DNA from: an uncultured Planctomycetales bacterium
Lineage (GTDB): Bacteria > Omnitrophota > Gorgyraeia > Gygaellales > Profunditerraquicolaceae
Direction: 5' to 3'
NCBI GenBank assembly: GCA_964645795.1
Contig: CAZYCL010000004.1
Span: forward strand, 88,292-152,291
DNA length: 64,000 nt
The notes below the pieces were generated by a model. That model saw only the letters and a program-made list of their open reading frames with translations. It was not told where the DNA came from and did no database searches. Position numbers and translations under genes: made by a program. Shown one piece after another: positions 22,710 through 40,935 of the stretch (its first letter is position 1; every line of letters starts with the position of its first letter).

Positions 22710-25034
22710 ATGAAGATCTATGCCAAGTCTGTGACGCTGCTTGTCCTTTTTGCCGTTTTTTTGACCACAGGCATCTTTTTGGATTTAAAAGCCGCAGGCC
22801 AGCCCGCAGGCAATAGCCGCTGTCTTGTGCATGCGGTATTTTACGGTCTTAGCTTAGCGGTATTTACGGCATTTGTCCTGGGCGTGGCGCGCAAGCTAAG
22901 GTTGGTTGCGGCCGGGTTAAAATCCCAAGATGCGCCCCTCTTTGCCAGGATGCGGGAAGGCAAAGACGAGTTCGCGGATATCGCCGGAACACTTACCCTG
23001 TATTTCTGGCAGAAGGAAGAGTTGGCCAGGCGGACCCAGGAGCGCATGACCACCGAGGAGGCCCTGCGTGATTCCGAGGTAAAGTACTCGGTGCTGGTGG
23101 AGTATGCCAAGGACGGGGTGGTCATAGTCCAGGACGGGCTGCTTAAGTTCACCAACCGCGCTATTGAAAACATACTCGGATATAATAATCAGGAGCTGGT
23201 AGACATGCCTCTGGAGGCGGTGCTGGCTCCGGAGTACCGGCAGATGACCATACGCATGTATATGCTGCGCATGGCCGGCGATAACGTGCCGAACTTTTAC
23301 GAGGCCAGGATGCTCTGTAAGGACGGCACGGTCAAAGACATCGAGATATCGGCCTCTATTATCCGTTATCAGGGAAAGAACGCGAGCATGGCGATATTAA
23401 GGGACGTCACGGAACGGAAAAAAATGGAGAACGAATTGCGGCAGGCAAAGGAGCAGGCGGAGTTTGCCAGCCGCGCCAAGAGCCAGTTCCTGGCGAACAT
23501 GTCGCATGAGATACGCACTCCCATGAACGCCATCGTGGGCTTCGCGGACCTCCTGCGTTACTCCAGCCTTGACCGGACCCAGAAATCATATCTGGATACG
23601 ATCTGCGCCAGCGGCGAAGCTTTGCTTACCGTCATAGACGATATACTGGATATCTCCAAGATCGAAGCCGGCAAGATACAGCTCGATAACATAGATTTTA
23701 ACCTTGAATATCTGGTCGAAAGCGTGATCAAAATAGTCAGCCACAGGCTTAAAAGCGGGCAGGTCGAGCTGTTCTATGAGTTCGCAGAAGATACGCCGCG
23801 GGATTACAAGGGGGATCCGGCCCGCGTACGTCAGATACTGCTTAACATCCTAAGCAATGCGGTCAAGTTCACGGAGAAGGGGGTGATCTCGGTCAGGGTC
23901 AGCCTCGAAGAGCCGATACCCGCGCCTCAAGAAGGCCCCTGCAGGCTACGCGTCTGCATCAAGGATACGGGCATAGGGATCGCCCGCGACAAGCAGGCCA
24001 AAATATTCCAGGCCTTCAGCCAGGCAGACGCTTCTACCGCCAAAGAATACGGAGGCACGGGGCTGGGGCTCTATATTTGCAAGACATTGGTTGAGCTGAT
24101 GAGCGGCAGGATCTGGCTGGAATCGCAGGAGGGCTCGGGCAGCGAGTTCATATTCACCGTCATGCTCACTAAGGCGCTGCCTGTAGTTGATAAAGACATC
24201 GCGCCGGTAAAGCCGCAGCTTTTAAAGGACAAAAAGGTAGCGATCATTGAGGCCAACCGGACGCTGCAGGGGCTGCTGGAGGACCACTGCCGCAATGCCC
24301 AGATGCGGGTATGCTTTAAATCCTCGAACATCAAAGACGCCCTGGAGTGGCTTTGCGCCCAGGCAGAGCTGCCCGATATCATGCTCTGCGACGTGCGGCT
24401 GGACAGCAGCGAAGGATACGCCCTGGCCAGGGTCCTAAAGCGGGAGGTAAAGTATAAGGACATAAAACTGGTCGCCATAACGACAGAAGCCAAGACCGGA
24501 GCCGCGCGCAGCCTTCAGGAAGCGGGCTTTGACGCGTATCTGCCCAAGCCCGTGATAAAGAACGACCTGATGAGCGTTATCCAGATCGTGCTGGGAGACA
24601 AGCGCGCTGAAAAGCAGATCATCACCCGGCACATGGCCCAGGAGCTGCTGTTAAAGGGCATAAGGGTGCTGGTAGTCGAAGACAACGAAGTGAATTCAAG
24701 GCTTATCAATATCATGCTGGCCAATCTCGGATGCATCGTTGAGACGGCGGTAAACGGCAGGGAGGCGATAGAAAAGATCAAGGCGGCTAACTTCGACATC
24801 ATACTAATGGATATCCAGATGCCGGAGCTTGACGGCATAGAAACTACCAAGTTTATCCGCAACCAGCTTAAAAGCAAGATCCCGGTAGTGGCATTTACTG
24901 CCGCGGTGATGAAGGACGACGAGCAGAAGGCGCTATCTGCCGGCATGGACGGGTTCCTCAGCAAACCCATCACCGTGGAAAAGCTTAAGAACATGTTCAT
25001 CCAGCAGCAGATCATCCTGCGCTCGCAAGAATGA
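22710..25034 (+). CDS. hybrid sensor histidine kinase (TM sensor, PAS, HisKA, HATPase, receiver-like and receiver domains)
   Basis: H-box LANMSHEIRTPMNAI, N/G boxes (ILSNAVKFT, DTGIGI, YGGTGLGLYIC) and a C-terminal receiver (VLVVEDNEVN...ILMDIQMPELDG...KP). Paralog of the gene at 37874-40177. Confidence 0.9.
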   Translation: MKIYAKSVTLLVLFAVFLTTGIFLDLKAAGQPAGNSRCLVHAVFYGLSLAVFTAFVLGVARKLRLVAAGLKSQDAPLFARMREGKDEFADIAGTLTLYFWQKEELARRTQERMTTEEALRDSEVKYSVLVEYAKDGVVIVQDGLLKFTNRAIENILGYNNQELVDMPLEAVLAPEYRQMTIRMYMLRMAGDNVPNFYEARMLCKDGTVKDIEISASIIRYQGKNASMAILRDVTERKKMENELRQAKEQAEFASRAKSQFLANMSHEIRTPMNAIVGFADLLRYSSLDRTQKSYLDTICASGEALLTVIDDILDISKIEAGKIQLDNIDFNLEYLVESVIKIVSHRLKSGQVELFYEFAEDTPRDYKGDPARVRQILLNILSNAVKFTEKGVISVRVSLEEPIPAPQEGPCRLRVCIKDTGIGIARDKQAKIFQAFSQADASTAKEYGGTGLGLYICKTLVELMSGRIWLESQEGSGSEFIFTVMLTKALPVVDKDIAPVKPQLLKDKKVAIIEANRTLQGLLEDHCRNAQMRVCFKSSNIKDALEWLCAQAELPDIMLCDVRLDSSEGYALARVLKREVKYKDIKLVAITTEAKTGAARSLQEAGFDAYLPKPVIKNDLMSVIQIVLGDKRAEKQIITRHMAQELLLKGIRVLVVEDNEVNSRLINIMLANLGCIVETAVNGREAIEKIKAANFDIILMDIQMPELDGIETTKFIRNQLKSKIPVVAFTAAVMKDDEQKALSAGMDGFLSKPITVEKLKNMFIQQQIILRSQE

Positions 25035-25047
25035 TGTTATAACCCCA

Positions 25048-25076
25048 TTGACTTTGCCCTCTGGCTGGAGTAGAAT
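25048..25076 (+). promoter_or_regulatory. candidate sigma70 promoter (TTGACT-17 bp-TAGAAT)
   Basis: TTGACT at 25048-25053, a 17-nt spacer and TAGAAT at 25071-25076, upstream of the second TonB-dependent receptor. Confidence 0.4.
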
Positions 25077-25111
25077 TCCTATTATTGTCGCAGCAGCCGG
25101 CCGGGGAGGAT

Positions 25112-26953
25112 ATGAGGCTTAGAGTATATTTATCACTGGCGTTGTTTCTATTATTGATTACCAGCCAGGTTTTCGCCCTTGAGCCGGAGGTGGAGCTGGA
25201 AAAGATACTGGTTACTAATCGCCGGGCGGACAGCTTTTTATCGCAAGCCACTGAGAATATTGAAGTTTTAAACGCGGGTAAGATCGAGAAGATACCCGCG
25301 CAAAACCTTTCCGAGGTCTTAAAGAGGATCGGCGCAGTGGACATCCAGCCGCGCCAGGGCTTTGGCCGGGCGACATCGATCAGTATCCAAGGCTGTGAAA
25401 GCCGGCAGGTCAAGATGCTCATTGACGGCATCCCCCTGAATACTCAATCCTCAGGCCAGGTCAACCCCGCTGAATTCCCCGTTGAATACATAAAGCGCAT
25501 CGAGGTCATTAAGGGCGCTGCTTCCAGCCTTTGGGGTTCGGGGCTGGGAGGGGTGATCAATATCGTCACCAAAGACACGGGTAAAGAGCTTGTTCCTACG
25601 GGAAGCATTACTTCGTCTTTTGCCGAGCATCGCAGCCGCAGGCAGGCCCTGGACCTGGCAGGCGCAGCCGGGGGCCTCGGTTATTATCTTTTTTCCAGCC
25701 TGACGGAATCGGGCGGCCGCGGCCGGCACGATGACGTTTTGGAGAAAAAGGCCTTTGGCAAAATATCCTACGACCTGAAAGAAGCGGGAAAACTCCTCTG
25801 TTCTTTCGGTTTCAGCCAGGCCGATGTCAACAGCGGCATATACCCTGACGGAAGCTGGGATTCCCAGCCTTACCGCGACCGTTACGGTAAAATAAGCTGG
25901 GAGAATAATATCGGAGCGGCTGACCTGAAGATAGAGGCAAAGCATTTCCGCAAGGATATCGTCACCAAATACTTCGCCACCGCCGAAGACAACGATGCGT
26001 ATATGCTGTTGCGTTTCAAAGACGTGTTGTATCAGTTGAGCGTCAGTTCGAGTTGGAAGCCCAGGGACAAAGACCTCCTGGTAATAGGCGCGGATTTCGA
26101 TTGCGATAATGTCAAAAGCGACGCTTATCTGGATAAGGCTAAAACAGTGCGCACGCAGGCGCCTTATCTTAACTATACCCTTGAATTAGGCCCATGGAGC
26201 CTTAACGCCGGGGCGCGTTACGATAATAACAGCGAATTCGGCGAAGCGCTCAGCCCTTCTCTGGGAGCGGTCTACCGTATTCAGGGTTTACCGGCTACCC
26301 TTATCCGCGCAAGCGTATCGCGCGCCTTTACTGCTCCGCCCCTGCTCTGGAAGCACAACCAGAATCCCAATCTATGGACCCTTCCCGCAACAGGCCTTAA
26401 GCCGGAAAGGGCCTGGGTATACGAACTGGGAGGGGAGAGTGAGCTTCAGCCCTGGCTGTGGGTCAAGCTCGGCCTTTACCGCGCCGACATTAAGGACGCC
26501 ATAGACGATGATTATACCGAGACCGGCGAGCGCTATAAAAGAAATTACTATAAATTCTTAAGGCAGGGCGCAGAGCTGCAGCTGCGCTGGAAGCTTAGCG
26601 AAGAATTCAGCTTCATGGGAGGGGCAGCCTTTAACGATATCAAGGACAAGACCACTAAACAAACCCTGCGCGGCGCAGGCAGGCCCAGGCAGAGCTTTGA
26701 CGCCGGGTTCGAGTATCAAAATAAATGGGGGCTGTCTATCGGGATATTCGGCAGCTATGACCGTTTCGGCGAGCCGCCGGCCTTTGAGCCCAATGACCGC
26801 AAGATGCTCTGGGATATGAAGATATCCTGGGAGAACAAGCACATCAAACCGTTCCTTAATATTTATAACCTTGGAAACAGCTCTTATTGGGATGATTACT
26901 GGTTCCCCGTTCCGGAAAGATACTTCGAAGGCGGGATCACCATTAAGTGGTAA
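25112..26953 (+). CDS. TonB-dependent outer-membrane receptor (paralog of 11941-13779)
   Basis: Signal peptide MRLRVYLSLALFLLLITSQVFA and plug motifs (IDGIPLN, IKRIEVIKGAASSLWGSGLGGVINIVTK). C-terminal barrel ends in W. ATG 25112 with SD GGGGAGGA is preferred over the TTG at 25085. Confidence 0.8.
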   Translation: MRLRVYLSLALFLLLITSQVFALEPEVELEKILVTNRRADSFLSQATENIEVLNAGKIEKIPAQNLSEVLKRIGAVDIQPRQGFGRATSISIQGCESRQVKMLIDGIPLNTQSSGQVNPAEFPVEYIKRIEVIKGAASSLWGSGLGGVINIVTKDTGKELVPTGSITSSFAEHRSRRQALDLAGAAGGLGYYLFSSLTESGGRGRHDDVLEKKAFGKISYDLKEAGKLLCSFGFSQADVNSGIYPDGSWDSQPYRDRYGKISWENNIGAADLKIEAKHFRKDIVTKYFATAEDNDAYMLLRFKDVLYQLSVSSSWKPRDKDLLVIGADFDCDNVKSDAYLDKAKTVRTQAPYLNYTLELGPWSLNAGARYDNNSEFGEALSPSLGAVYRIQGLPATLIRASVSRAFTAPPLLWKHNQNPNLWTLPATGLKPERAWVYELGGESELQPWLWVKLGLYRADIKDAIDDDYTETGERYKRNYYKFLRQGAELQLRWKLSEEFSFMGGAAFNDIKDKTTKQTLRGAGRPRQSFDAGFEYQNKWGLSIGIFGSYDRFGEPPAFEPNDRKMLWDMKISWENKHIKPFLNIYNLGNSSYWDDYWFPVPERYFEGGITIKW

Positions 26954-26980
26954 GGCTTAGCGTTTAATTACAGGAGCCGC

Positions 26981-28600
26981 ATGTTAAGAGCAATCCCCTG
27001 TCTTTTCCTGATCCTGGTCCTTCCTTTTAATATCAGCGCCAAAGATATCAATACGCAGTCCGGTCCTTACGGCGGCACCCTTGTCTGGGGCAGCTGTTAT
27101 CCTCCGACGATAATCAACCCTATCCTTACGACCCACAGTATTTCGATGACCCTGCAGGACCTTATTTTTAATAAGCTGATCCGCCTGAATTCTAAAGGAG
27201 AGCTGGAAGGCGACCTGGCTGAAAAGTGGGAAGTATCCGAAGACGGGCTGACCTACACTTTTTATCTGCGCCGGGGAGTGCGTTTTCATGACGGGGCAGA
27301 GCTGAGCTCCCAAGATGTGAAGTTTACCTTCGATAAGATCACTGATCCCCAAACCAGCTCGCCTTTTCGTTCGCTTTTTGACCTGGTCAAGGAGTTTAGA
27401 GCCAAAGATAAATACGTCTTCCAGGTCGAGCTGACCAAGGCCAGCCCTTCATTCATTTACCGGCTGATAAAGGAGATCGCGCCCAGGCATCTTCTGGAGA
27501 ATAAAGATTTGAATAAAGCCGCCTTTAATCGCTCACCCGTAGGCACCGGGCCGTTTAGATTCAGAGAGTGGAGCAAGGACGGAGAGATCATCCTTGAGTA
27601 CAACCCGGATTATTATGAGGGCAGGCCGTATTTAGACAGGATAATCGTAAAGACCTATCCTGATTCGCACAAGCTCTGCGCGGCAATGATGCGCCAGGAG
27701 GCAGACCTGGCTTTTTACATCGATAAAGATGATTATGAGATGATAAAGAAAGATCCTTCGTTTCACGCTTATGCCCTTGCGGTGGATACGTATTACGCCA
27801 TGGTCTATAATCTTGAGGATCCTATCCTGTCTGATATAAGGGTAAGGCAGGCAATCGTCCATGCTGTTAACCGTAAAGCCCTGATCGAAGAGGTAGCTTC
27901 CGGTTACGGTGAAGAGAGTATTGGGCCGTTTTCTTTCGCCTCCCCGGCTTTTAACCGCGGGATAAAACCTTTTGAGTTTGATCCGCAAAAGGCAAAGGCG
28001 CTCTTGGATACTGCGGGATGGAGGCATAGGGATGGAGACGGCATACGCGAAAAAAAAGGCATAAAGTTAGAATTACGGGTTTTAGTTGATTCCCGTCAGC
28101 CAGTGCTTAAACGTATTGCAATGGTCTTAAGGCAACAGCTACAGTCCGTGGGGCTGAAGCTTACCGTTCATTTGTACAATGATGATACTGAACTGACAGA
28201 GGATCGTTTGCAGAATAATGCGCAAGCTCAAATAATAACATTGATTTCAACAAGAGAAGACCCCGGGCAATTATTAGATTGGTCTCCAGAGGAGTACTCC
28301 GAGACTTATTGTCTGTGGATGTATAAAAACCCAGAAATAGCGAGATATTTTAGTTTAGGCAGGATTTGTAAAAGCGCAGAGAAAAGAAAACGGATTTATC
28401 AAAAAATCCACAACATCATTTATGCAGATCAGCCCGCCTGCTTTCTTTATTTCCCATCCTCTTTCTTTGCTTCTTCATCAAGAATCCAAAATATTGATGA
28501 GCTTTTTACGCATACCGTGCCGGTTTACACAATTAAAAACTGCACAATTAAAGAAGGTAGTTTGTCTCAAGACAGAAGGGAGGTGAGAAAATGGAGGTAA
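26981..28600 (+). CDS. ABC-transporter substrate-binding protein, family 5 (peptide/nickel/opine-type SBP)
   Basis: Signal peptide and an SBP_bac_5-like core (GPFRFREWSKDGEIILEYNPDYYEGRPYLDRI, AMVYNLEDP), 539 aa. No cognate permease or ATPase genes are adjacent. Confidence 0.75.
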   Translation: MLRAIPCLFLILVLPFNISAKDINTQSGPYGGTLVWGSCYPPTIINPILTTHSISMTLQDLIFNKLIRLNSKGELEGDLAEKWEVSEDGLTYTFYLRRGVRFHDGAELSSQDVKFTFDKITDPQTSSPFRSLFDLVKEFRAKDKYVFQVELTKASPSFIYRLIKEIAPRHLLENKDLNKAAFNRSPVGTGPFRFREWSKDGEIILEYNPDYYEGRPYLDRIIVKTYPDSHKLCAAMMRQEADLAFYIDKDDYEMIKKDPSFHAYALAVDTYYAMVYNLEDPILSDIRVRQAIVHAVNRKALIEEVASGYGEESIGPFSFASPAFNRGIKPFEFDPQKAKALLDTAGWRHRDGDGIREKKGIKLELRVLVDSRQPVLKRIAMVLRQQLQSVGLKLTVHLYNDDTELTEDRLQNNAQAQIITLISTREDPGQLLDWSPEEYSETYCLWMYKNPEIARYFSLGRICKSAEKRKRIYQKIHNIIYADQPACFLYFPSSFFASSSRIQNIDELFTHTVPVYTIKNCTIKEGSLSQDRREVRKWR

Positions 28601-28686
28601 TCAGGTTTGGGTCAGATGTAGTTTCGCAGATGACTCCAAGAGGTTGTTGTTACCCCGTAGGTTCAATGTCAGTTCGCGTAAGGTAA
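28591..28686 (+). CDS. small Cys-containing peptide ORF (31 aa: MEVIRFGSDVVSQMTPRGCCYPVGSMSVRVR), candidate RiPP precursor
   Basis: ATG 28591 is preceded by a strong SD GGGAGGTGA at 7-nt spacing. It lies 20 nt upstream of a radical-SAM/SPASM gene and was not in the six-frame track, which shows nothing shorter than 60 aa. It overlaps the last 10 nt of the SBP gene in another frame. Confidence 0.4.
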   Translation: MEVIRFGSDVVSQMTPRGCCYPVGSMSVRVR

Positions 28687-28706
28687 GAAAAGCATCCAAG
28701 TAGCGG

Positions 28707-30119
28707 ATGGATAAGGCTCTCGAAAGAGAGGCTTACCATCCTAAAAAATCAATTATGGAGCTTTCAAGGTTTAATTGCTGGGTCAAGGATCATCCGGGTA
28801 AGGGAGATTACCTGCTTTTTAACTGCCGCACGCAGGGCCTGATCAGGGTTAATCCGGAGTTTAAAGCCGCGTTAGAGTCGTTAGGGGCGGGCATTGTCCC
28901 GGAGCTATTAACCCCACATATTTTAGCGCTCAAGCAGAACGGGATGATCGTGGAGGACAGGGCTGAGGACGAGTCGAAGCTACGTGATTTTTTCCGGCAG
29001 CTAAAGGCCGGCCCCTGCGGCCTGAGCTTCGAGGTAAACATCCTTACCACTTATAACTGCAACTTCCGCTGCGTTTACTGCTTCGAAGAAGGCGCAAGGA
29101 GCAGGGCCAGGCTTAATAAAAAAACCAGCGAGCTTGTCGTCAGATGGCTTAAGGATTATATCCTTGCCAGGGGCCTGACAAAGCTTTACGTCGTCTATTA
29201 CGGAGGCGAGCCGCTCTTAAATACGTTCCCGATTTACGGGATCTCCGGAGAATTAAAAGAGTGGGCCGGCGTCAATAAAATAGATTTTGCTTTCGGCATC
29301 ATCACTAACGGCAGCCTGATCACCCCTAAGCTTGTCGAAGAGCTGCTGCCTTTGGGCTTACGCGACATCCGCGTAACCCTCGACGGCCCTGCCGAGGTGC
29401 ACGACCGCATGCGGCCGTTCTGCGACGGCTCGGCTACTTTTAACCGGATAATCGAGAATATCAAGAGCGTCATCGGCAAGGTGAACGTCGGCATTGCGGG
29501 AAACTTTGACCGCCGGAGCTTTCCGGCTATTCCCAGGCTTCTTGATTATTTAAAAGAAGAAGGATTATTCGAGCGCCTGGGTGAGCTCAACTTCGCCCCC
29601 ATTACTCCCAGGCTCGGCCCGAAAGGCAGTCCCGCATCCATAGAGCTGTCCGAGTGCATGAGCTTTATCGATGATAAAGACGGGCTGTTCGAAGAGACGG
29701 TCCTTATGAAAAGAGAGCTGGCCAGAAGAGGGAAGACGCCTGCCAGCGGGCTGAATATCAATGCCTGCCCTTTGTTCATGCAGGACATCGGTCTGACCAT
29801 CGACCCCAAGGGCGATATCTATAAATGCAACTCCCTGCTTGGGCACCAAGAGTTCAGCGTCGGTAACGTCCGCCAAAAAGGCTTTAACGGCAAGTTTGAA
29901 ATGTTTCGCAATATCGATGCCTGGGAGAAGTGCAGCGATGACTGCCCTTATGTGCCGATGTGCCAGGGCGGCTGCCGCTTCTTTTCCTATATCGAGAACA
30001 AAAACTTCACCGACCTTTTCTGCCGCAGGGAGTACTTTGACAGGATCATACCCGAGCTCATTAAATTAGAGTATAATAACCTGGCGCAGGCAAGGCAGGC
30101 GGCCGCAGGCAAACAATGA
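28707..30119 (+). CDS. radical SAM / SPASM-domain peptide-modifying enzyme
   Basis: CxxxCxxC (YNCNFRCVYCFEEG) radical-SAM cluster motif and a C-terminal Cys-rich SPASM region (CPLFMQD...CNSLLG...CSDDCPYVPMCQGGCRFF). The ~100-aa N-terminal extension is consistent with a peptide-recognition (RRE-like) domain. Confidence 0.8.
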   Translation: MDKALEREAYHPKKSIMELSRFNCWVKDHPGKGDYLLFNCRTQGLIRVNPEFKAALESLGAGIVPELLTPHILALKQNGMIVEDRAEDESKLRDFFRQLKAGPCGLSFEVNILTTYNCNFRCVYCFEEGARSRARLNKKTSELVVRWLKDYILARGLTKLYVVYYGGEPLLNTFPIYGISGELKEWAGVNKIDFAFGIITNGSLITPKLVEELLPLGLRDIRVTLDGPAEVHDRMRPFCDGSATFNRIIENIKSVIGKVNVGIAGNFDRRSFPAIPRLLDYLKEEGLFERLGELNFAPITPRLGPKGSPASIELSECMSFIDDKDGLFEETVLMKRELARRGKTPASGLNINACPLFMQDIGLTIDPKGDIYKCNSLLGHQEFSVGNVRQKGFNGKFEMFRNIDAWEKCSDDCPYVPMCQGGCRFFSYIENKNFTDLFCRREYFDRIIPELIKLEYNNLAQARQAAAGKQ

Positions 30120-31849
30120 AAAACTCCAAGACTCTCCTTAAACTGCTCTCCCCGTATAAAAAACACCTATTTCTGATCCTGCTTTCCGTGATCATCGCCA
30201 ATGCCGCCGGCCTGTTTTTGCCCTGGGCGCTAAAGCTCATTGTCGATGAGGTGGTAATAAAGAAGGAATTCGCGGCGCTGAACATGATCTGCCTGGCGCT
30301 TATCCTGGCATTTTTGGCCAGGTTCTGCTTCGGCTACCTTAGGGAGTACCTGTCTTCTTTTGTGGGGGAGAAGGTCGTCTGCGACCTGCGCGAAAAGATA
30401 TACTGGCAGCTGCAGCGGCTCTCGGTGCATTACGTTGACAGCACCCCGAAGGGCAGGATCATCTCGGGTATCACTTCGGATGTAGAGGATATCCGCGATT
30501 TTTTGTTCGGCGGGGCAATGGATTTCATATATGGGATTTTTAACATTGTTTTTGTCTTTACGGTCCTGGCAGCGCTTGACCGCGAACTGGCCCTGATCTC
30601 TTTCCTATATCTGCCTGTTTTTATCCTGGTTTTTCATCACGTCGCCCCGCAGCTCAAAGAAAGACACGGCCGGATCAGGGAGCATTTTAGCGCGCTGACT
30701 TCTACCGTTAACGAGTTCCTGCAGGGCATACGCGTAGTCGCCGGGTTCTCATCCCATGAAGCCGAAGCCAAAAAGTTTTGCAGCCGGCAAAGGGAGTTGT
30801 TCGGCGCCAGCATCGAGAGCCACAGGATGAGCATCCTTCTATGGGTCGGCGCCGAGTTCCTTAGCTCTCTGGCCCTGGCAACCGTAGTATGGTTCGGGGC
30901 CAGGCGCGTGATGAGCGGCTCGATCACCGTAGGAACGCTCATAGCGTTTTATTCGTACCTGGCGATGTTATTCTATCCCGTTGTCAGGATGGCGATCATC
31001 AACGATTATTACCAGCAGGCAAGCGCGGGGATCGAGCGGGTCCGCCAGATCCTGGAAGCCCGGCCCCGGGTAGTTGAGCCAAAAAACCCCGTCCGCCTGT
31101 CCGCGATAGACAAGGGCATAGTATTCTCGGGGGTAAGCTTTGGCTACAATGAGGCTAAAGAGGCGCTCTCGGATATAAACCTTAAGATAGATAAATCGCA
31201 GGTTGTGGCAATAGTCGGAAAGAGCGGCGCCGGAAAGACCACGCTTATCAACCTCCTCCTGAGATTCTACGATCCGCAAAAAGGGGAGATCCTCATCGAC
31301 GGGCATGACCTGAAGCACCTGGACCTGGGTTGTTACCGCCGCCGCATCGCCATGGTCATCCAGGACGATTATCTTTTTGCGGCGACCGTCAGGGAGAACA
31401 TCTCCTACGGCCGCCCCGACGCCACGCAAGAACAGGTCGTCGAGGCAGCCAGGAAGGCCAATGCCCATGATTTTATCATGCAGCTGGAATCGGGTTACTC
31501 TACCGGCATCGGCGAGCGCGGGGTCAGGCTTTCTTACGGGCAGAGGCAGCGCATCTCCATCGCCCGGGCAATACTCAGGGACCCGGAGATACTTATCCTC
31601 GATGAAGCCACCTCCAACGTAGATACCGAAACCGAAAAGGCGATCATCGAGCAGGCCTTCCGCAATCTGATTAAAGACAGGACTACGCTGATAGTCGCTC
31701 ACCGGATGTCCGCGATCAGCTATGCAAACAGAGTTGTATTTTTGGACGGCGGCAGGATAACCGAAGCAGGCTCGCCTTCCGAGCTGATCAGCAAGAAGGG
31801 TGATTATTGGAGGATGCTTTCCGGCCAGCAGGAGGCCGCAGCCATTTAA
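30116..31849 (+). CDS. ABC exporter, fused permease-ATPase (type I exporter)
   Basis: Six-TM N-terminal half, Walker A GKSGAGKTT, signature LSYGQRQR, Walker B ILILDEATS. ATGA overlap with the rSAM gene. Confidence 0.9.
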   Translation: MKNSKTLLKLLSPYKKHLFLILLSVIIANAAGLFLPWALKLIVDEVVIKKEFAALNMICLALILAFLARFCFGYLREYLSSFVGEKVVCDLREKIYWQLQRLSVHYVDSTPKGRIISGITSDVEDIRDFLFGGAMDFIYGIFNIVFVFTVLAALDRELALISFLYLPVFILVFHHVAPQLKERHGRIREHFSALTSTVNEFLQGIRVVAGFSSHEAEAKKFCSRQRELFGASIESHRMSILLWVGAEFLSSLALATVVWFGARRVMSGSITVGTLIAFYSYLAMLFYPVVRMAIINDYYQQASAGIERVRQILEARPRVVEPKNPVRLSAIDKGIVFSGVSFGYNEAKEALSDINLKIDKSQVVAIVGKSGAGKTTLINLLLRFYDPQKGEILIDGHDLKHLDLGCYRRRIAMVIQDDYLFAATVRENISYGRPDATQEQVVEAARKANAHDFIMQLESGYSTGIGERGVRLSYGQRQRISIARAILRDPEILILDEATSNVDTETEKAIIEQAFRNLIKDRTTLIVAHRMSAISYANRVVFLDGGRITEAGSPSELISKKGDYWRMLSGQQEAAAI

Positions 31850-31855
31850 ACCAGG

Positions 31856-33670
31856 ATGAAAATACCGAATCTCCAAAAGGCCTTCCTAAAGTTAGTAGTA
31901 AAGGTTTTTTACCGGCAAAGGCAGCTTAAGGCAGCGGCCCTGATATTTATCGTCATCGGCTCGGCGATCGTTTTCGGCGGTCTTATCTTTATGGGCGCTT
32001 TTTACTCCGCCGGCAAAAAAGCGATAATGGATAAACACGAGGCTATCGCCTCCAGCGCATCAGAAGAGATAAGGCATATACTAAGGCGGCACGAGGATTT
32101 ACTCGGTTCGGCCGCCTCGATCATCGGCAGCCTTGATAACGATCCCTGGCAACAGGAGACGATCTTGGTGGAGCTGGTGCTTAGAAATCCGGCGTTCCTG
32201 CGCGTCTCTTCATTTGACCTTAAATGCCGCCTCACCGCTACCTCCGATCTGGGCGAGGCGCCGCGATGCCCTGACGAAGACAAGGTGCTCGGCGGCATCA
32301 CCGCGGGCAACAGCTATGTCTCTGAGGCGCGGTTTTACAACAACGGCATCCCTTATGTCTCGATGGCCCTGCCCATAAAGAGGTCGGGAGAGGTCCGCGC
32401 CTTTTTATTGGCGGACATCGACATAAAGGAGGTCTGGAGCGCGATGGATAACGTGCATGTGGGCAGGAGTGGCTATATCGCGGTCGTTTCAAAAGACGGC
32501 TCCCTGATAACGCATAAGGATAAGAAGCTGGTGTTCAAGAAGGCCAATATCATCACAGATAAGGACGCTTCCTCGGTCCTGCAGGGCGAAGCCGCAAGCA
32601 AGGAGTGGTTTGACGATAAGGCTAAGACGCGCTGGCTAAGCAGTTACGTGCCGATAGGCAGCACCCCCTGGGGGCTTATGCTGCGCCAGGCCAGCGATGA
32701 GGCGTTCTTTTCTTTGAGGTTGCTGAGGATCCAGATGAGCGTGATCATTATTCTCGGCCTCATCATTGCGGCGGGGCTGTCTTTTTATTTAGGCAACCTC
32801 TTTGTTAAGCCGCTTCAGCTTTTGATCCTTCAGGCGCGCGGCATGGGCCTGGCCCCCCGGCCGGAAAAGGGTAATAGCGAAGACGAGCTAAGACAGCTGA
32901 CCAGCATATTCGACCGCCTCTCCTCAAGGCTAAAGGAGGCCGAAGCCACCCAGAGGTTTTCCGGGATCGGAGAGGCCACTGCCTGGGTGGCGCATGAGCT
33001 GAAGAACTCTCTTTTCTCCATAAAATCGTTTGTCCGTCTTTTTCCGCAGCGCCAGAATGACGAGCAGTTCGTCAGGAAGTTCAACACCCTTGTCCCCGAA
33101 GAGATCGAAAGGCTGGAGCGCATTTTAAGGGACCTGACATACTTCTCTGCGTCCGGGGAGATCGTCCGGGTGCCGGTGGATATCAGGGAGGTGATAACGC
33201 AGGTCGTGGGCCTTACCGAGGAGACGCTCAGGCAAAGGCATGTCTGCCTGCAGTGCAAGTTGCAATCCGCAGAGCTCATACTTGAGGCAGACGCGGAATT
33301 ATTGAAGCAGGTATTCCTCAACCTTATCATCAATGCCGTCCATGCCATGCCCCAGGGCGGCGAGATTACCATATCCGCCGAGCCGATAAATGCCGCCTAT
33401 CTGCAGTTAAGGGTCAGCGATACGGGCTGCGGTATCCCGCAAGAGCGCCTGAAAGATATCTTTGAGCCTTTTCGCTCCACCAAAAAAGACGGCTTCGGCT
33501 TGGGGCTCTTGATATGCCGCAAGATCATCCAGCAGCACGGCGGCTCGGTAGAGGTGGCAAGCCGCCCCAACCAGGGAACGACGTTTACGATAACCCTGCC
33601 CGTTAAGAACGTCCCGGAGTTCAATAAGCGCTTCGATCCGGTAACCGATAAAGACAGCGTCCATGGTTAA
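31856..33670 (+). CDS. sensor histidine kinase with periplasmic Cache-like sensor domain
   Basis: Two TM segments flank a ~250-aa extracytoplasmic domain. H-box VAHELKNSL, N-box LINAVHAM, G-boxes DTGCGI and GFGLGL. Confidence 0.85.
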   Translation: MKIPNLQKAFLKLVVKVFYRQRQLKAAALIFIVIGSAIVFGGLIFMGAFYSAGKKAIMDKHEAIASSASEEIRHILRRHEDLLGSAASIIGSLDNDPWQQETILVELVLRNPAFLRVSSFDLKCRLTATSDLGEAPRCPDEDKVLGGITAGNSYVSEARFYNNGIPYVSMALPIKRSGEVRAFLLADIDIKEVWSAMDNVHVGRSGYIAVVSKDGSLITHKDKKLVFKKANIITDKDASSVLQGEAASKEWFDDKAKTRWLSSYVPIGSTPWGLMLRQASDEAFFSLRLLRIQMSVIIILGLIIAAGLSFYLGNLFVKPLQLLILQARGMGLAPRPEKGNSEDELRQLTSIFDRLSSRLKEAEATQRFSGIGEATAWVAHELKNSLFSIKSFVRLFPQRQNDEQFVRKFNTLVPEEIERLERILRDLTYFSASGEIVRVPVDIREVITQVVGLTEETLRQRHVCLQCKLQSAELILEADAELLKQVFLNLIINAVHAMPQGGEITISAEPINAAYLQLRVSDTGCGIPQERLKDIFEPFRSTKKDGFGLGLLICRKIIQQHGGSVEVASRPNQGTTFTITLPVKNVPEFNKRFDPVTDKDSVHG

Positions 33671-34349
33671 GAACCCGCGGCAAGATACGGCAACAAAGAT
33701 AACCGTACTGCTGATAGATGACCACAAGATGATCAGGGAAGGCCTGCGTTTACTGCTGGAGGGGTCTTCGCATTTTGAGATCATCGCAGAGGCCGATAAC
33801 GGCCGGGACGGGGTTGAGGCCGCTTGCAGGCTTCTGCCCGAAGCGGTAGTGATGGATGTGTCTATGCCCGACCTTAACGGCATGGAAGCCTGCCGTAAAA
33901 TATCAGAGAGGGTCCCCAAGACCAAAATAATCGCCCTTTCCATGCACGCCGAGCGCCGGTTCGTCGAAGAGATGCTCAAGGCCGGCGCCAGCGCCTACGT
34001 GCTTAAGGATAACGCCTTCGATGAGCTGCTTCTGGCGATACGGGCTTCCCTTAACGGAGACTCCTACCTTTCTCCGGAGATCACCAGGTTAATGGTTTCC
34101 GAGTTCATCAGCCCCCGGGATAACGCCGGCCGCAAAAGCCCCGGGGCGCACGAGGCCCTGACTGCGCGGGAGAGGGAAGTGCTGCAGCTTGTTGCCGAAG
34201 GCGTCTCCACCAAGCTTATAGCCCGCAAGCTAAAAGTAAGCGTCAAGACCGTTGAAAGCCACCGTCAGCAGATCATGCACAAGCTCAAGCTCTACAGCGT
34301 CGCCGAGCTTACCAAATACGCCATCCGCGAAGGCATTACCTCCGTCTAA
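33663..34349 (+). CDS. NarL/FixJ-family response regulator (receiver + LuxR-type HTH)
   Basis: Receiver (VLLIDDH...VVMDVSMPDLNG...SMH) and a C-terminal LuxR HTH (LTAREREVLQLVAEGVSTKLIARKLKVSVKTVESHR). Confidence 0.9.
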   Translation: MVKNPRQDTATKITVLLIDDHKMIREGLRLLLEGSSHFEIIAEADNGRDGVEAACRLLPEAVVMDVSMPDLNGMEACRKISERVPKTKIIALSMHAERRFVEEMLKAGASAYVLKDNAFDELLLAIRASLNGDSYLSPEITRLMVSEFISPRDNAGRKSPGAHEALTAREREVLQLVAEGVSTKLIARKLKVSVKTVESHRQQIMHKLKLYSVAELTKYAIREGITSV

Positions 34350-34444
34350 CTTGCCCTAAGGTTTTTCGAACCCCCAAACAGGGAATACCCCGATTGCCTG
34401 CCCGTCAAAGTTAAAGTAAATTATGATCAGAGGATAGTCTATAT

Positions 34445-36562
34445 ATGCCAAAGAAACGCGTGTCTGTCTTCCACGGGATGCTTTTCTCTTATCTGCTTGT
34501 AGGCCTGGTAGCTGGCCTGGCCATCGGGCTGTGGCAGGGCCACCGCGTAGTTTCGATAACCGCTATCCTGATTTTTGCATATTTCCTGGCCATATTTGTT
34601 TCCCGCAAACTTTTACTGCCCCTTAACAAGATCTCCGATTATCTGGGGGAAGTGGCCGAAGGCAATTTCCTTAACCGGATCAATTTCAGGAGCTGGAAGG
34701 AGATAGAGGCGCTGACTTGCGGATTCAACAGGATGGCGGAGAAGCTCAACAGGCGCTTTATCCTGCGCGAAGAGCTGGCTAAAGAGGCCGAAGAGCGCAA
34801 GCGGCTGGAATCGGCGTTCCTTGAAAATGAGGCGCTAAACCGCGCGCTCTTCGAATATTCCGGGGACGGCATACTGCTGATCTATAAGGATATGATCGTC
34901 GACTGCAACGGCCGGAGCCTGGAGATGCTCGGCTGCCGGCGTCAGGATCTGATCGCCAGGCCCCTCTATTCATTTTCCCCGTTAATACAGCCGGACGGCT
35001 GTTCTTCCGAAGGCAAGGCCAGGAGGATGCTGGAAGAGGCGTTTTTAGGCAGGCGGCAGTCTTTTGAATGGGTCTACGACAGGCCTGACGGCCAGACGCT
35101 CTACGTAGAGCTGGCTTTAAACAGGGTTGAGGCAGGCAACAAAGCGATGGTCCAGGTAATACTGCGCGATATAACAAGGCGTAAGCTCTGCGAAGAGAAG
35201 ATGCGCAAAATCAGCCTTCTGCAGGCAGAGATGCTTAAGCCCGGTTCGATAAAGGAAAAGACCGCGGTCGTAGCACAGGAAGTGTCCAAGATGTTTAAGG
35301 CGCAGCTATGCTGCATCTGGATAGCGGGGCCGGCGGATATATGCGAGCGCGGCTGCGCGTACGCATCAGCAAAAGAAGGCTGCCCCTGCAGTAGCCGCCG
35401 GCAGTGCCTTCATCTGGCCGCCAGCGCCGGTGATCATGAGGATGCCGTGCAGGAGTGGGCCCGGCGGCTGCCCCTGGAGTCATCCAGGATTGGCGCCGTC
35501 GCCACCGGTCATCAGCGCGGTTTCTTTAGCAATGATCCTGCCGGATGGCCCCTGCCCGGCGCAGTTGAATGGGCAAGCGGGCTGGGCATCGAGTCTTGCG
35601 CCGCCTGCCAGCTTTGTCCTTGCGAGGATAATCTGGCCGGGGCGCTGGCCATATTTTGCCGCAGCGAAATATCAGCCGAAGATTACCGGCTTATCGAGGG
35701 GCTGAGCAATACCGTCGCCCTTATGGTGCAGTCAGCGCGAGCGCAGGAATCCGTCATTAATTACGCCTGCCGGATCCAGGCGGTTAACCGGGAGCTGGAT
35801 GATTTTACCTACATCGTCAGCCACGACCTGAAAGAGCCGCTTAGGAGTATCAACGCCTTCTCCAAATTCCTGGAGGATGATTACGGCCCCGCGTTCGACG
35901 AGAACGCCAGGCGATACATCCAGCGCATCAAGGCCAATACCGATCATATGCACGCGCTGATCGAGGACCTGCTTGAGATATCGCGCATCGAAAGGAAGTT
36001 AAATCCGATGGAGGAGGCCGACATCGGCGCCATCATCGATGAGGCAAGGCGCCGTCTTGAGTATTCGATCCAGGAAAAAAATGTCGTCGTCGACATCAAA
36101 GGCGATCTGCCCAGGATTTACTGCGACAGGACAAGGATCACCGAGGTCTTCGCCAACCTTTTTTCCAACGCCATCAAGTTTAACGACAAGCCCGAGCCGC
36201 GCATAGAAGTAGGCTATTCGCTGGAGGGCGCATACCACCAGTTTTACGTCAGGGACAACGGCCCGGGCATCGAGGAGCAGTATTTTGAGAAGATATTCTC
36301 CATTTTTCAGAGGCTGGTCAAGAAGGAGGATTACGAGGGCACCGGGGCCGGGCTTACGATAGTCAAAAAGATCATAGGTATGCACCGGGGCAGGGTTTGG
36401 GTAGAATCAAGACCCGGAGAGTTCAGCGCGTTTTATTTTACTATACCGGCGGCAAAAGAAGCGATATACGCCAGGAAAAAGCTGGGAGAGATACTGCTGG
36501 ACAAAAAGATGGTCACCGAAACACAGCTTAACCTGGCGCTGGAGGAACAGGCCGGTTTATAG
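34445..36562 (+). CDS. sensor histidine kinase (TM-HAMP, PAS, GAF-like, HisKA, HATPase)
   Basis: HAMP-like linker, H-box VSHDLKEPLRSI (phytochrome-type HisKA), N-box LFSNAIKFN, G-boxes DNGPGI and GTGAGL. Confidence 0.85.
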   Translation: MPKKRVSVFHGMLFSYLLVGLVAGLAIGLWQGHRVVSITAILIFAYFLAIFVSRKLLLPLNKISDYLGEVAEGNFLNRINFRSWKEIEALTCGFNRMAEKLNRRFILREELAKEAEERKRLESAFLENEALNRALFEYSGDGILLIYKDMIVDCNGRSLEMLGCRRQDLIARPLYSFSPLIQPDGCSSEGKARRMLEEAFLGRRQSFEWVYDRPDGQTLYVELALNRVEAGNKAMVQVILRDITRRKLCEEKMRKISLLQAEMLKPGSIKEKTAVVAQEVSKMFKAQLCCIWIAGPADICERGCAYASAKEGCPCSSRRQCLHLAASAGDHEDAVQEWARRLPLESSRIGAVATGHQRGFFSNDPAGWPLPGAVEWASGLGIESCAACQLCPCEDNLAGALAIFCRSEISAEDYRLIEGLSNTVALMVQSARAQESVINYACRIQAVNRELDDFTYIVSHDLKEPLRSINAFSKFLEDDYGPAFDENARRYIQRIKANTDHMHALIEDLLEISRIERKLNPMEEADIGAIIDEARRRLEYSIQEKNVVVDIKGDLPRIYCDRTRITEVFANLFSNAIKFNDKPEPRIEVGYSLEGAYHQFYVRDNGPGIEEQYFEKIFSIFQRLVKKEDYEGTGAGLTIVKKIIGMHRGRVWVESRPGEFSAFYFTIPAAKEAIYARKKLGEILLDKKMVTETQLNLALEEQAGL

Positions 36563-36581: not shown

Positions 36582-37058
36582 ATGGCGCAAAAGATCAGGG
36601 GCGCGGTGAAGATCCTGCTGGTAGAGGATACGCCCGATGATGTCATGATCACGCAGAGGGCGCTCAAAGAGGCTAAGCTCCTCAACAGGCTGCACGTTGC
36701 CAGGGACGGGCAGGAGGCCCTGGATTACCTCTGGCATTGCGAGGCAGCGGATAAGGACGCCGGCCCCCTTCCCGGATTGATACTTTTGGATATCAATATG
36801 CCCAAGATGAGCGGATTGGATGTCCTCAGGCGCATAAAAAGCGACAATAATCTGAAGAAGATACCGACGGTGATCCTCACCGTCTCCCAGAAAGAGGAGG
36901 ACATCGAAAAGGGTTACTACTACGGCTGCAACAGCTTTATCCAGAAACCTGTGGAGTTTGAGAAGTTCGTGGAGGTAGTCAAGCAAATCGGTCTCTATTG
37001 GGGTTTTATAAACGTGAATATACCGGAAGGCCTGGAAAGGGGGGCGCCCAAGTCATGA
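36582..37058 (+). CDS. single-domain response regulator (CheY-like)
   Basis: KILLVEDTPDD...LILLDINMPKMSG...TVS...K receiver motifs, 158 aa. Confidence 0.85.
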   Translation: MAQKIRGAVKILLVEDTPDDVMITQRALKEAKLLNRLHVARDGQEALDYLWHCEAADKDAGPLPGLILLDINMPKMSGLDVLRRIKSDNNLKKIPTVILTVSQKEEDIEKGYYYGCNSFIQKPVEFEKFVEVVKQIGLYWGFINVNIPEGLERGAPKS

Positions 37059-37756
37059 TCGTTTCTGCTCATCAACCGCAGTATTTGCCGTGGTCAGGCT
37101 ACTTCGATAAGATAGCCAAAAGCGACTGCTTTGTTTTCCTGGATCAGGTGCAGTACAAACAACGCGAATTTCAGAATCGTAATAAGATAAAGGTCAAAGA
37201 CGGATGGGCGTGGCTGACCGTGCCGGTAAAGACCAAGTACAGGTACAAGCAGCCGATCCGGGATGCCCTTGTTGATAATGGGCTAAGCTGGGGCAGGGAG
37301 CATTTGCATCTGATCAAGGCCTGGTACGCCGATGCGCCGTATTTTGGCCGCTACAAGGCTTTTCTCGAAGATGTGTATTGGCGTTCGTGGGAGAAGCTCA
37401 GAGATTTGAATGCATTCCTGATCAAATACGTGATGAAGGAGCTTGATATAGACAGGCCAGTATACTTTGAATCTGAGCTGAGCATATCCAGCGACAGGAC
37501 GGATAGGATCATCGATATCTGCAGGCGCCTCGGGGCCAACACGTATCTGGCGGGCGTCGGTTGCAGGGCCTACCTTCAGGAGGATAAGTTCATCTCTGCC
37601 GGCATAAAGCTGGTATACCACGAGTTTAAGCATCCGGAATATAAACAGCTGCACGGCGCAAGGTTTATCCCGTGCCTGTCGGTCTTCGACCTGCTTTTGA
37701 ACGAAGGCGATAACGCAAAAAGCATACTCGGCTTAAAACAGGCCACTGCGGTCTAA
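37055..37756 (+). CDS. WbqC-like family protein
   Basis: MIVSAHQPQYLPWSGYFDKIAKSDCFVFLDQVQY N-terminus is typical of WbqC-like proteins. ATGA overlap with the upstream receiver gene. Confidence 0.65.
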   Translation: MIVSAHQPQYLPWSGYFDKIAKSDCFVFLDQVQYKQREFQNRNKIKVKDGWAWLTVPVKTKYRYKQPIRDALVDNGLSWGREHLHLIKAWYADAPYFGRYKAFLEDVYWRSWEKLRDLNAFLIKYVMKELDIDRPVYFESELSISSDRTDRIIDICRRLGANTYLAGVGCRAYLQEDKFISAGIKLVYHEFKHPEYKQLHGARFIPCLSVFDLLLNEGDNAKSILGLKQATAV

Positions 37757-40180: not shown

Positions 40181-40519
40181 ATGGACGCGCGGGAGAAAGA
40201 GAAGATTCTGAAAGAGCTGGGGGATATTCCGCAGGAGACTTACGATGAGCTGGTGCGTTTTTTCATAGGGCAGCTTGCCCAGGCCATCCCGCAGTTAAAG
40301 GGCCTGGTTGCTTGCGGTGACTGGCAGTCTTTGGCAAAGGCCGCCCACTCCCTCAAGGGCTCCTCCGGCAATCTGCGTCTTTCCAGGGTCTACGAGGCTG
40401 CCATCCGTATCAATGACCTGGCAAAACAGTGCAGGGGCAAAGACGATATCATCAAGGATATTGCACTCCTGGAAGAGTCCATCCCGCAGCTTAAGAATGA
40501 GTTCGGGGTCGGTCAATAA
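40181..40519 (+). CDS. Hpt (histidine phosphotransfer) domain protein
   Basis: 112 aa with the HSLKGSSGNL phospho-histidine motif. Confidence 0.8.
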   Translation: MDAREKEKILKELGDIPQETYDELVRFFIGQLAQAIPQLKGLVACGDWQSLAKAAHSLKGSSGNLRLSRVYEAAIRINDLAKQCRGKDDIIKDIALLEESIPQLKNEFGVGQ

Positions 40520-40535
40520 AATAAAAGGGGGGTTT

Positions 40536-40928: not shown

Positions 40929-40935
40929 GGATATT

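Follow-up and report, generated by a model that had tools for sequence, protein, structure and literature searches.

A radical S-adenosylmethionine peptide operon of Omnitrophota linked to a TonB-dependent receptor, an orphan binding protein and a Cache-domain kinase: a possible recapture-and-sensing loop

Described peptide systems and how the locus compares

Cell–cell signalling by peptides is regarded as a speciality of Gram-positive bacteria, one reason being that the porins of a double-membraned cell do not let peptides above ~600 Da pass to a sensor in the inner membrane. A stretch of 64 000 nucleotides (the window) from an uncultured Planctomycetales bacterium, placed in the Omnitrophota by GTDB (GenBank assembly GCA_964645795.1, contig CAZYCL010000004.1, positions 88 292–152 291), carries at 25112–34349 seven genes, all on the plus strand, for a TonB-dependent receptor, a family-5 solute-binding protein (SBP) without importer genes, a 31-aa precursor peptide, a radical S-adenosylmethionine (SAM)/SPASM maturase, an ABC exporter, a Cache-domain sensor kinase and a NarL-type response regulator. 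The same genes were found again in independent assemblies. The conserved coupling of a radical SAM peptide cluster to a receptor, an orphan SBP and a Cache kinase was previously undescribed. We propose, at a probability of about 45 %, that the modified peptide is exported, returns through the receptor, binds to the SBP and is detected by the kinase, which would close an autoinduction loop; the dedicated TonB-dependent gate and the SBP co-receptor would then be this operon family's concrete solution to the double membrane.

In the Gram-positive circuits of nisin (nisABTCIP-RK), agrBDCA and comCDE, a precursor, a processing enzyme, an exporter, a kinase and a regulator likewise share one locus, a hairpin follows the precursor gene and positive feedback is expected. 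An earlier reading made from the letters of the window (the sequence-only reading) had recognized in the present cluster the logic of Gram-positive quorum-sensing and bacteriocin loci. The gene logic is indeed shared, but homology is not: the cluster has neither a C39-peptidase exporter nor an AgrB-type processor, and neither an HPK10 kinase nor a LytTR or OmpR regulator. The kinase instead has two transmembrane (TM) helices and a periplasmic dCache domain rather than a polytopic HPK10 architecture, the regulators are of the NarL, AraC or NtrC types, and an outer-membrane importer and an SBP are added, since the sensor sits behind the outer membrane.

Methanobactin operons carry a family-5-type binding protein, MbnE, without a permease of its own. 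They further combine a precursor (MbnA), modifying enzymes (MbnB/C), an exporter of the MATE type (MbnM), a TonB-dependent importer (MbnT) and regulation coupled to the importer (MbnI/R) (PMC3621798). The window operon resembles them in its ribosomally made Cys peptide, modifying enzyme, inner-membrane exporter without an outer-membrane partner gene, TonB-dependent re-importer, permease-less SBP and proposed coupling of regulation to re-uptake, the importer, SBP and exporter being analogous parts for which orthology to MbnT, MbnE and MbnM is not implied. It differs in using a radical SAM/SPASM protein, the only enzyme of the operon, in which neither MbnB (DUF692, an iron enzyme) nor MbnC was found, an ABC instead of a MATE exporter, a two-component system instead of an extracytoplasmic function sigma/anti-sigma pair, and a receptor that lacks a signalling extension.

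This match of gene logic is the starting point of an alternative that we regard as unlikely, namely that the peptide is a methanobactin-like metallophore whose modified Cys-Cys core, once secreted into sulfidic and anoxic water, captures a thiophilic metal in short supply (Ni, Co, Cu or Zn) or some other nutrient. When loaded, the peptide would be re-imported and bound by a NikA-like SBP, and the kinase would sense the loaded form and tune production, as PfeS/PfeR does for enterobactin. The evidence for and against it is given below with the genes concerned.

SBP_bac_5 is the main peptide-binding SBP family, with ligands from di- to nonapeptides, and the stimulation of sensor kinases by SBPs is an established mechanism (PMC10443332). 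Like LuxP-LuxQ, TorT-TorS and ChvE-VirA, the window cluster has an orphan SBP beside a kinase with a tandem-PAS/Cache-like periplasmic domain and no transporter genes; unlike them, its SBP is of family 5 (peptide/nickel), the ligand is presumed to be a self-made peptide and an outer-membrane receptor is included, physical contact between SBP and kinase being predicted. In PfeA-PfeS/PfeR (enterobactin) and in Bacteroides SusC with hybrid two-component systems, TonB-dependent import delivers a ligand to the periplasmic sensor of a kinase. The ligands there are siderophores or glycans rather than self-made peptides, and no SBP acts as intermediary.

The CteB/SCIFF and ranthipeptide (PapB) maturases share with the window enzyme a three-domain fold, made up of a recognition element (RRE) for the leader of peptides made by ribosomes and modified after translation (RiPPs), a radical SAM barrel and a SPASM domain with auxiliary clusters, and they act on Cys-rich substrates. 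Identity to the window maturase is, however, ~20 %, the window substrate has only two adjacent Cys residues, and the CteB, SCIFF and PapB systems are without receptor, SBP and kinase.

Closest of all is the geopeptide family, a computational definition (TIGR04280 for the maturase, TIGR04229 for the peptide) of the type hypoth_equivalog. Literature searches found no paper on the geopeptide/TIGR04280 family and none on the present system. TIGR04280 ('geopeptide radical SAM maturase') was the best NCBIfam model for the window maturase, with 302.5 bits against a cut-off of 400; a close orthologue (L001) reached 318.7 bits, and the true members in Geobacteraceae and Nitrospirota loci, ~30 % identical to the window maturase, scored 517–665 bits (L051 627.4, L043 665.1, L053 516.8). 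The window peptide had no match to TIGR04229 (cut-off 30 bits) even at E ≤ 10, and the Geobacter peptide of L051 reached only 19.6 bits. A short Cys-Cys peptide lies directly upstream of the maturase gene and a TonB-dependent receptor gene adjoins, an arrangement that is geopeptide-like by our own reading of the loci and not by a curated definition. On these scores, which fall under both curated thresholds, the window system belongs to a sister clade of the geopeptide family. The wider superfamily comprised 748 clusters at 50 % identity (E ≤ 1e-30), spread over Omnitrophota, Planctomycetota, Nitrospirota, Nitrospinota and Geobacter.

Both systems have a short precursor with an (I/V)(I/V)x(K/R)xG-type leader (IVxLxxG-type in geopeptides) and an invariant Cys-Cys pair ~10 residues from the C-terminus, and a homologous maturase composed of RRE, radical SAM and SPASM domains. 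The TonB-dependent receptors encoded immediately upstream are orthologous, and each system also has a Cache kinase, an orphan periplasmic binding protein and a NarL-type regulator, the geopeptide regulators being 50–53 % identical to that of the window. They differ in the core motif (CC[FYW]PxG[ST]xxxR in the window system, CC-x-G-small/hydrophobic in geopeptides), in the SBP (family 5 and upstream of the peptide versus PF04392 and downstream) and in the kinase (dCache_1/HisKA versus sCache_4/HAMP/PAS/HisKA_3), and the window system adds a B-type ABC exporter. Under either the signalling or the metallophore reading, the uncharacterized geopeptide radical SAM family gains a biological context.

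The seven-gene operon and its precursor peptide

Gene content, order and strand were as the sequence-only reading had given them, and Pfam and NCBIfam assigned all seven genes the domains it had named. Its short or overlapping junctions were also borne out: spacing ranged from −10 to +27 nt (+68 nt with a later maturase start), the successive junctions being +27, −10, +20 (or +68), −4, +6 and −8 nt. Of the two ATGA overlaps it had listed, that at 30116 between maturase and exporter was present, whereas at 33663 the kinase and regulator genes overlap by 8 nt (ATGGTTAA).

A sigma-70-type promoter-like site (TTGACT-17-TAGAAT, 10/12 consensus matches) lies at 25048–25076 (+), ~35 nt 5′ of the receptor ATG and just past the stop codon of the upstream hybrid kinase gene; by its consensus match alone it is a candidate promoter. 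Where separate promoters and terminators between the genes would have spoken against their linkage, there was this one site in front of the cluster and no intrinsic terminator in any of its junctions. The region 25112–34349 is thus predicted to be one compact operon. Among repeats that could bind a regulator (upstream of the receptor, around the peptide and after the regulator gene) the only one found was an imperfect palindrome, AATGATGTTATAACCCCATT, at 25030–25049, which abuts the −35 hexamer; compared by eye with the consensus, it did not match a Fur box. A sigma-54 scan, prompted by the NtrC-type regulator upstream of the cluster in many relatives, gave no match in 25000–34400 and fewer matches than expected by chance in the whole window, and Rfam detected no riboswitch or other known RNA within the cluster.

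The receptor gene (25112–26953, +) encodes a BtuB-sized protein of 613 aa. Its ATG at 25112, preceded by the ribosome-binding site GGGGAGGA, opens a signal peptide, and the Plug (77.5 bits, residues 54–157) and barrel (107.1 bits, residues 269–596; both numbered from the ORF at 25085) are accompanied by a TonB-box-like EKILVTN, without an N-terminal signalling extension. Signal peptide, TonB box, plug and 22-strand barrel, the hallmarks of a TonB-dependent transporter, were all present. The best NCBIfam match, TonB-B12, scored 156 bits, far under its cut-off of 599.7, and the PDB entries nearest in sequence were the colicin I receptor (2hdf), with 74.5 bits confined to the plug region, and BtuB (3rgn), with 73.8 bits over the full length. 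Orthologues in close loci were 45–58 % identical, and the receptors beside geopeptide maturases aligned over their full length at 190–250 bits. A second, unrelated TonB-dependent receptor of 612 aa is encoded in the window at 11941–13779 (+), between a BirA-like gene (10902–11864) and a PabB/aminotransferase-IV fusion (13795–15687); it matched the cluster receptor at 81 bits, in the plug only. Since even the geopeptide-clade receptors score 190–250 bits against these 81, the cluster-linked receptors form a specific family.

The SBP gene (26981–28600, +) encodes 539 aa with a signal peptide and an SBP_bac_5 domain (PF00496, 292.6 bits). Neither an ABC importer permease or ATPase nor TonB/ExbBD was found in the 64-kb window by Pfam, in a scan of nearly all large plus-strand ORFs that left out the small ORF 57941–58402. 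The absence of importer permease and ATPase genes bears out the earlier claim that the SBP is a true orphan, and an SBP gene near a kinase gene without cognate importer genes, the arrangement of SBP-dependent sensors, was seen in the window and in related loci alike. AppA binds a nonapeptide. The AppA of Bacillus subtilis (1xoc) was the closest solved relative of the SBP (216 bits, full length), ahead of NikZ (180 bits) and NikA (131–133 bits), with CntA-type proteins also among the relatives; in NCBIfam the top match was nickel_nikA (214 bits, under the cut-off of 393). The metallophore reading can cite this top match and the NikZ, NikA and CntA-type relatives, but the SBP is nearer to AppA than to NikA. 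The least conserved part of the protein is residues 401–440, around the residue aligned with Asp408 of DppA.

A metagenome scan with the SBP profile returned mostly generic family-5 SBPs among the matches listed, with four orthologues among them. Among these listed matches, SBPs of at least 42 % identity always had the receptor gene upstream and, where the contig allowed, maturase, exporter and kinase genes downstream; those of 36 % identity or less were without cluster genes, several having an ABC ATPase-like gene 4–5 kb downstream. Orthologues of the SBP, among the matches listed, thus seem to occur almost only in these clusters; a protein search followed by a look at gene context brought up one that is paired with the kinase alone (L166, see below). 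The SBP is proposed to be a co-receptor of the kinase.

The precursor gene (28591–28686, +) encodes the 31-aa peptide MEVIRFGSDVVSQMTPRGCCYPVGSMSVRVR; its start, preceded by GGGAGGTG, overlaps the SBP stop codon by 10 nt. The peptide consists of a leader, MEVIRFGSD..., and a core, ...PRGCCYPVGSMSVRVR. Gene callers missed the ORF in this genome and called it in L168, L169 and L170. Homologous ORFs of 27–39 codons occupied the same position in more than 22 related loci, and the alignment showed C19, C20, P22 and G24 to be invariant, with F, Y or W at position 21, S or T at 25 and R at 29, and an N-terminus of the form M-E-[IV]-I-[KR]-x-G-S-D. This defines a new precursor motif, C-C-[FYW]-P-x-G (CC[FYW]PxG[S/T] with the following residue). 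For the invariant residues all synonymous codons are in use (four for Pro, four for Gly, two for Cys), and a near-perfect AAGGAGGTGA precedes the peptide ATG by 6–9 nt in all of 22 loci; selection therefore acts on the translated peptide, and the ORF is a real precursor gene and, by these signals, a highly translated one. Some individual metagenome-assembled genomes (MAGs) of Nitrospirota have a pair of geopeptide loci (L046/L058, L048/L064 and L059/L062) whose precursors are of two types, one short (e.g. MEKRIVILKKGMEKKELLQGFCCAGAFIPLMI) and one extended at its N-terminus by a long Lys/Ala-rich stretch (e.g. MRRMAKRIAVKKKAMKKKATKKKAAKKK...TTCCAGALIRI).

A stable RNA hairpin without a U-tract spans 28705–28741 (+; −24.3 kcal/mol, z = −4.8, none of 200 shuffled sequences as stable), directly behind the stop codon of the precursor gene. 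It was the sole structured element among the cluster junctions, and an equally strong hairpin was found at the same place in all 14 related loci that were folded. Modified-peptide operons usually have a hairpin behind the gene for the precursor; as the U-tract is absent in the window, this one is likely to be a transcript stabilizer or an attenuator that raises the ratio of precursor to enzyme. The hairpins of L003, L005, L006, L007, L013 and L033 (e.g. L006:9948–9984) have a near-identical apex, CUGGGCGGCCGACCAG, on differing stems, and variants of this apex recur in L018, L019 and L002; the apex of the window hairpin is different. The apex shared by several Omnitrophota loci could be a recognition site for a protein or an RNase.

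The maturase gene ends at 30119 (+) and is open from 28707. Its real start is probably the ATG at 28755 (M17), because all homologues begin there, residues 1–13 are disordered in the AlphaFold model and the hairpin occupies the preceding stretch. The protein has a radical SAM domain (PF04055, 60.1 bits against a cut-off of 29.5) with a CX3CX2C motif at C118/C122/C125, a SPASM domain (TIGR04085, 49.3 bits against 27) and C-terminal Cys residues at 354, 374, 409, 413, 419, 423 and 439 that were invariant in 25 homologues. The model (mean predicted local distance difference test score 86.5, above 88 over residues 21–100 and below 50 at residues 1–13) showed an RRE-like N-terminal β3-α3 module at 23–101 (strands 23–27, 35–39 and 45–48; helices 50–57, 66–77 and 85–101). 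As expected of a RiPP maturase, a leader-recognition domain is combined with an adjacent precursor gene, 20–68 nt upstream. Among solved structures the thioether-forming CteB matched best in both sequence and fold (5why/5wgg; full length, E 3.5e-21, TM-score 0.63–0.70), and after TIGR04280 the next best NCBIfam families were CefB, TIGR04463, PapB and SCIFF, all maturases of Cys-rich peptides. Because CteB is the nearest structure and the nearest named families act on Cys-rich peptides, the maturase most likely cross-links the core, with thioether bonds from the two Cys residues as the likeliest chemistry. Thioethers are poor metal ligands. The metallophore reading is weakened here, as the nearest enzymes (CteB, PapB, CefB and SCIFF) consume Cys thiols in forming them; on its side, a chemical constraint is suggested by the vicinal Cys pair, which is invariant, and by the conservation of the core across phyla.

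Distant relatives of the maturase (30–34 % identity; P0395, P0413, P0507 and P0488) included fusions to an N-terminal glycosyltransferase family 2 domain, to a C-terminal class-I methyltransferase and to an N-terminal TIR domain, which are uninformative on uptake or sensing. The full cluster of L168 has a further radical SAM/SPASM gene at 4133–5757, which is unrelated (24 % identity) and has a 32-codon ORF of its own upstream; in this locus FeoAB lies just before the receptor and an OEP (TolC-like) gene follows the regulators.

The exporter (30116–31849, +) is an ABC half-transporter of six TM helices and a nucleotide-binding domain (ABC_membrane 164 bits, ABC_tran 121 bits). It begins directly with ABC_membrane (residues 18–289), and its matches to peptidase-containing bacteriocin exporters start at model positions ~137–147, from which the absence of a C39 peptidase domain follows. 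In a Nitrospirae geopeptide locus (L050:2385–7701, also L049) a MacB-type permease, an ABC ATPase and an AhpC/TSA-type thiol redoxin precede the receptor. This arrangement, not kept in other geopeptide loci, might offer another way of export and might hint at a redox-active Cys pair.

The sensor histidine kinase (31856–33670, +) consists of TM1 (22–52), a periplasmic dCache_1 domain (~53–282), TM2 (283–318), a dimerization and phosphotransfer domain with the motif AHELKNS, and HATPase_c; its core was most like AtoS/ZraS in NCBIfam. Among orthologues the periplasmic domain was 28–50 % identical, about as conserved as the cytoplasmic part. The last gene (33663–34349, +) encodes the NarL/LuxR-type response regulator, with REC and GerE domains by Pfam and NCBIfam, whose orthologues were 47–54 % identical in close loci and occurred regularly, at 50–53 % identity, in the geopeptide clade.

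Conservation of the linkage and the proposed loop

A scan of a genome collection with the maturase profile gave 77 loci, onto which the window proteins were mapped by tblastn. The 27 close loci (maturase at least 49 % identical) came from MAGs labelled Omnitrophota, Planctomycetia and Deltaproteobacteria, and counts were limited to those with sufficient flank. The SBP was present in 19/19, the receptor upstream in 15/15 (three further loci carry it after the kinase), the exporter in 25/26 and the dCache kinase in 23/24. The NarL-type regulator was found in only six of 24, its place being taken by a REC-AraC protein after the kinase, by an NtrC-type sigma-54 activator immediately before the receptor or by an HTH_17(-REC) protein before the receptor. 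The order receptor–SBP–peptide–maturase–(exporter)–kinase, which had been left to be checked in relatives, was kept in nearly every locus with enough flank and across several phylum-level labels. Of the seven-gene module as first proposed, receptor, SBP, peptide, maturase and kinase stand as constant members; the NarL regulator does not, and the exporter is missing in some relatives. Cluster components were 45–60 % identical between loci (50–60 % when receptor, SBP, peptide, maturase and kinase are set beside MnmA), compared with 60–64 % for the housekeeping protein MnmA. The named top matches of the MnmA of this genome were all from Omnitrophota, at 58–63 % identity. Since these divergences match, the cluster looks vertically inherited in the Omnitrophota.

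Adjacency alone would be weak proof of a functional unit, because the window is rich in two-component genes. The cluster could thus be an ordinary modified-peptide cluster in a chance neighbourhood of many two-component and transport genes, as kinases and regulators crowd the window (22710–25034, 34445–36562, 36582–37058, 37874–40177 and 40308–42132) and the NarL regulator is poorly conserved. Against this, the order is kept in the 27 close loci and in intermediate and distant clades, the junctions overlap or nearly abut, and in L078 the same gene set is flanked on both sides by housekeeping genes. With the synteny so conserved, chance adjacency is effectively refuted and we give it next to no probability.

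At least 12 loci of the true geopeptide clade had their genes in the order receptor–peptide–maturase–SBP–kinase–NarL regulator. Their peptide, maturase and receptor are orthologous to those of the window clade, whereas the SBP and the sensor domain of the kinase have both been exchanged, and the PF04392 SBP of the geopeptide clade is also without a transporter. The joint exchange suggests that SBP and kinase sensor work as a pair, and a peptide that stays constant while SBP and sensor change would be their likeliest ligand. A locus on a 506-kb contig of a PVC-group bacterium (L166:9001–12976) points in the same direction. It encodes only the SBP (50 % identity), the dCache kinase (39 %, full length, the same identity as for kinases of full clusters) and a REC protein, and no receptor, peptide, maturase or exporter was found on the contig. 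L166 is a receiver-only locus, and in keeping only these three genes it argues that the SBP works with the kinase and not with a transporter.

That such a unit can stand alone as a self-sufficient sensor, and that the exporter is optional, also fits a reading that we hold to be distinctly unlikely, in which receptor, SBP and kinase detect an external ligand that has nothing to do with the peptide (for example an oligopeptide or a metal chelate of prey, host or competitor) and the regulator switches on a peptide with an antimicrobial or other role. Import through the outer membrane followed by periplasmic sensing has its precedents in the SusC and PfeA/PfeS systems. The view that Omnitrophota are host-dependent (bioRxiv 10.64898/2026.06.07.730766) also speaks for this reading. 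A foreign ligand leaves unexplained, however, why peptide and maturase are wedged between SBP and kinase or between receptor and SBP in nearly all loci, and why the association with an orthologous receptor outlasts the exchange of SBP and sensor family. It is also at odds with the near-confinement of the SBP orthologues, among the matches listed, to peptide clusters and, for a bacteriocin locus, with the lack of the immunity gene that it would need.

What the loci themselves provide are genes, domains, a real precursor, co-inheritance and the pairing of SBP with kinase; every transport, binding and regulatory step of the autoinduction loop that we favour is inferred from them. The 31-aa precursor with its Cys-Cys core, encoded beside a CteB-like maturase with a leader-recognition domain, would be cross-linked by that maturase, by homology most likely through thioethers from the two Cys residues. 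The ABC half-transporter would move the product across the inner membrane and, at low external concentration, the dedicated TonB-dependent receptor, whose linkage is conserved, would pump it back into the periplasm. There the orphan family-5 SBP would bind the peptide and then dock on, or hand it over to, the dCache domain of the kinase in the manner of LuxP/LuxQ. The kinase would phosphorylate the NarL-type regulator, which would adjust transcription, probably of the operon itself. We read the peptide primarily as a signal, namely an autoinducer that may, like nisin, have another activity besides. The suggestion of the sequence-only reading that SBP and receptor serve to re-import or sense the modified peptide gained support from the confinement of SBPs of at least 42 % identity to such clusters (among the matches listed), from the geopeptide orphan SBP beside its own kinase and from L166.

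Several points weigh against this loop. The cluster encodes no outer-membrane export component and no leader protease, and no regulator-binding site was identified in it. The exporter is absent from one close locus (L169), from intermediate loci (L027, L028 and L030) and from most geopeptide loci. Quorum-sensing signals that are private tend to diversify, and the conservation of this core across phylum-level labels agrees better with a function constrained by chemistry, such as metal binding. The precedents for a secreted molecule with its own receptor are metallophores; we know of no signalling peptide that is taken up in a TonB-dependent manner, and literature searches found no report of one. 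The receiver-only locus has no receptor, so the receptor may be dispensable for sensing.

The metallophore reading draws further support from the hosts, all of which are anaerobes with metal-rich enzymes (in the window, the NiFe-hydrogenase/Mrp-type cluster at 44327–55328), and from a thiol-redoxin gene (L050) or a Metal_resist gene adjoining the receptor in single loci. Against it, no Fur-, NikR- or Zur-type regulator or recognizable box was seen in the cluster, and an inner-membrane importer was found in none of the more than 40 related loci examined. The geopeptide clade uses a PF04392 SBP, a family with no known metal ligands, whose solved members bind aromatic amino acids, and the receiver-only locus keeps SBP and kinase and not receptor and SBP, the opposite of what siderophore piracy would lead one to expect. 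Were it true nonetheless, the product, a thiol or thioether metallophore, would represent a chemically new class among the metal scavengers for habitats that are sulfidic and anoxic, the radical SAM counterpart of methanobactin.

If the autoinduction loop is correct, the operon could be the first known case of a quorum-sensing-like architecture for peptide autoinduction that belongs natively to bacteria with two membranes, with the geopeptide superfamily as its variants and the receiver-only genomes as eavesdroppers, a broader claim that we advance tentatively and at rather less than even odds. Both communication and metal acquisition are nearly unstudied in the Omnitrophota and the other host phyla, and the organism need not be cultured for its peptide, maturase, SBP and Cache domain to be expressed and tested.

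Neighbouring genes and other features of the window

The cluster is flanked by two hybrid PAS-HisKA-HATPase-REC-REC kinases (22710–25034 and 37874–40177, +), which were 51 % identical over 669 aa. Also nearby are a PAS kinase (34445–36562), a REC protein (36582–37058) and a WbqC-like gene (36998–37756). The hybrid kinases and the downstream PAS kinase and REC protein were considered as cluster members and rejected, as they are not conserved beside the cluster elsewhere. A few kilobases downstream of the cluster, L002, L007 and L022 encode C-terminal halves that share 57 % identity with the 34445–36562 kinase.

The region 44327–55328 (+) contains genes of a membrane-bound, group-4-like NiFe hydrogenase/Mrp-type complex, including a 49-kDa/NiFeSe large-subunit-like gene, NADHdh, two Proton_antipo_M genes, MbhD/E, MNHE and ferredoxins; a PhoU-domain gene lies in their midst. 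At 3313–5517 the window encodes a P-type heavy-metal ATPase. The only RNA that Rfam detected, far downstream of the cluster, was a cyclic di-GMP-I riboswitch (RF01051) at 58447–58582 (+), with 48.9 bits where the gathering score is 35. It lies ~180 nt upstream of a gene for a family 1 glycosyl hydrolase (58763–59983), which is followed by a gene for a cNMP-binding/ParA-like/patatin protein (59980–61977).

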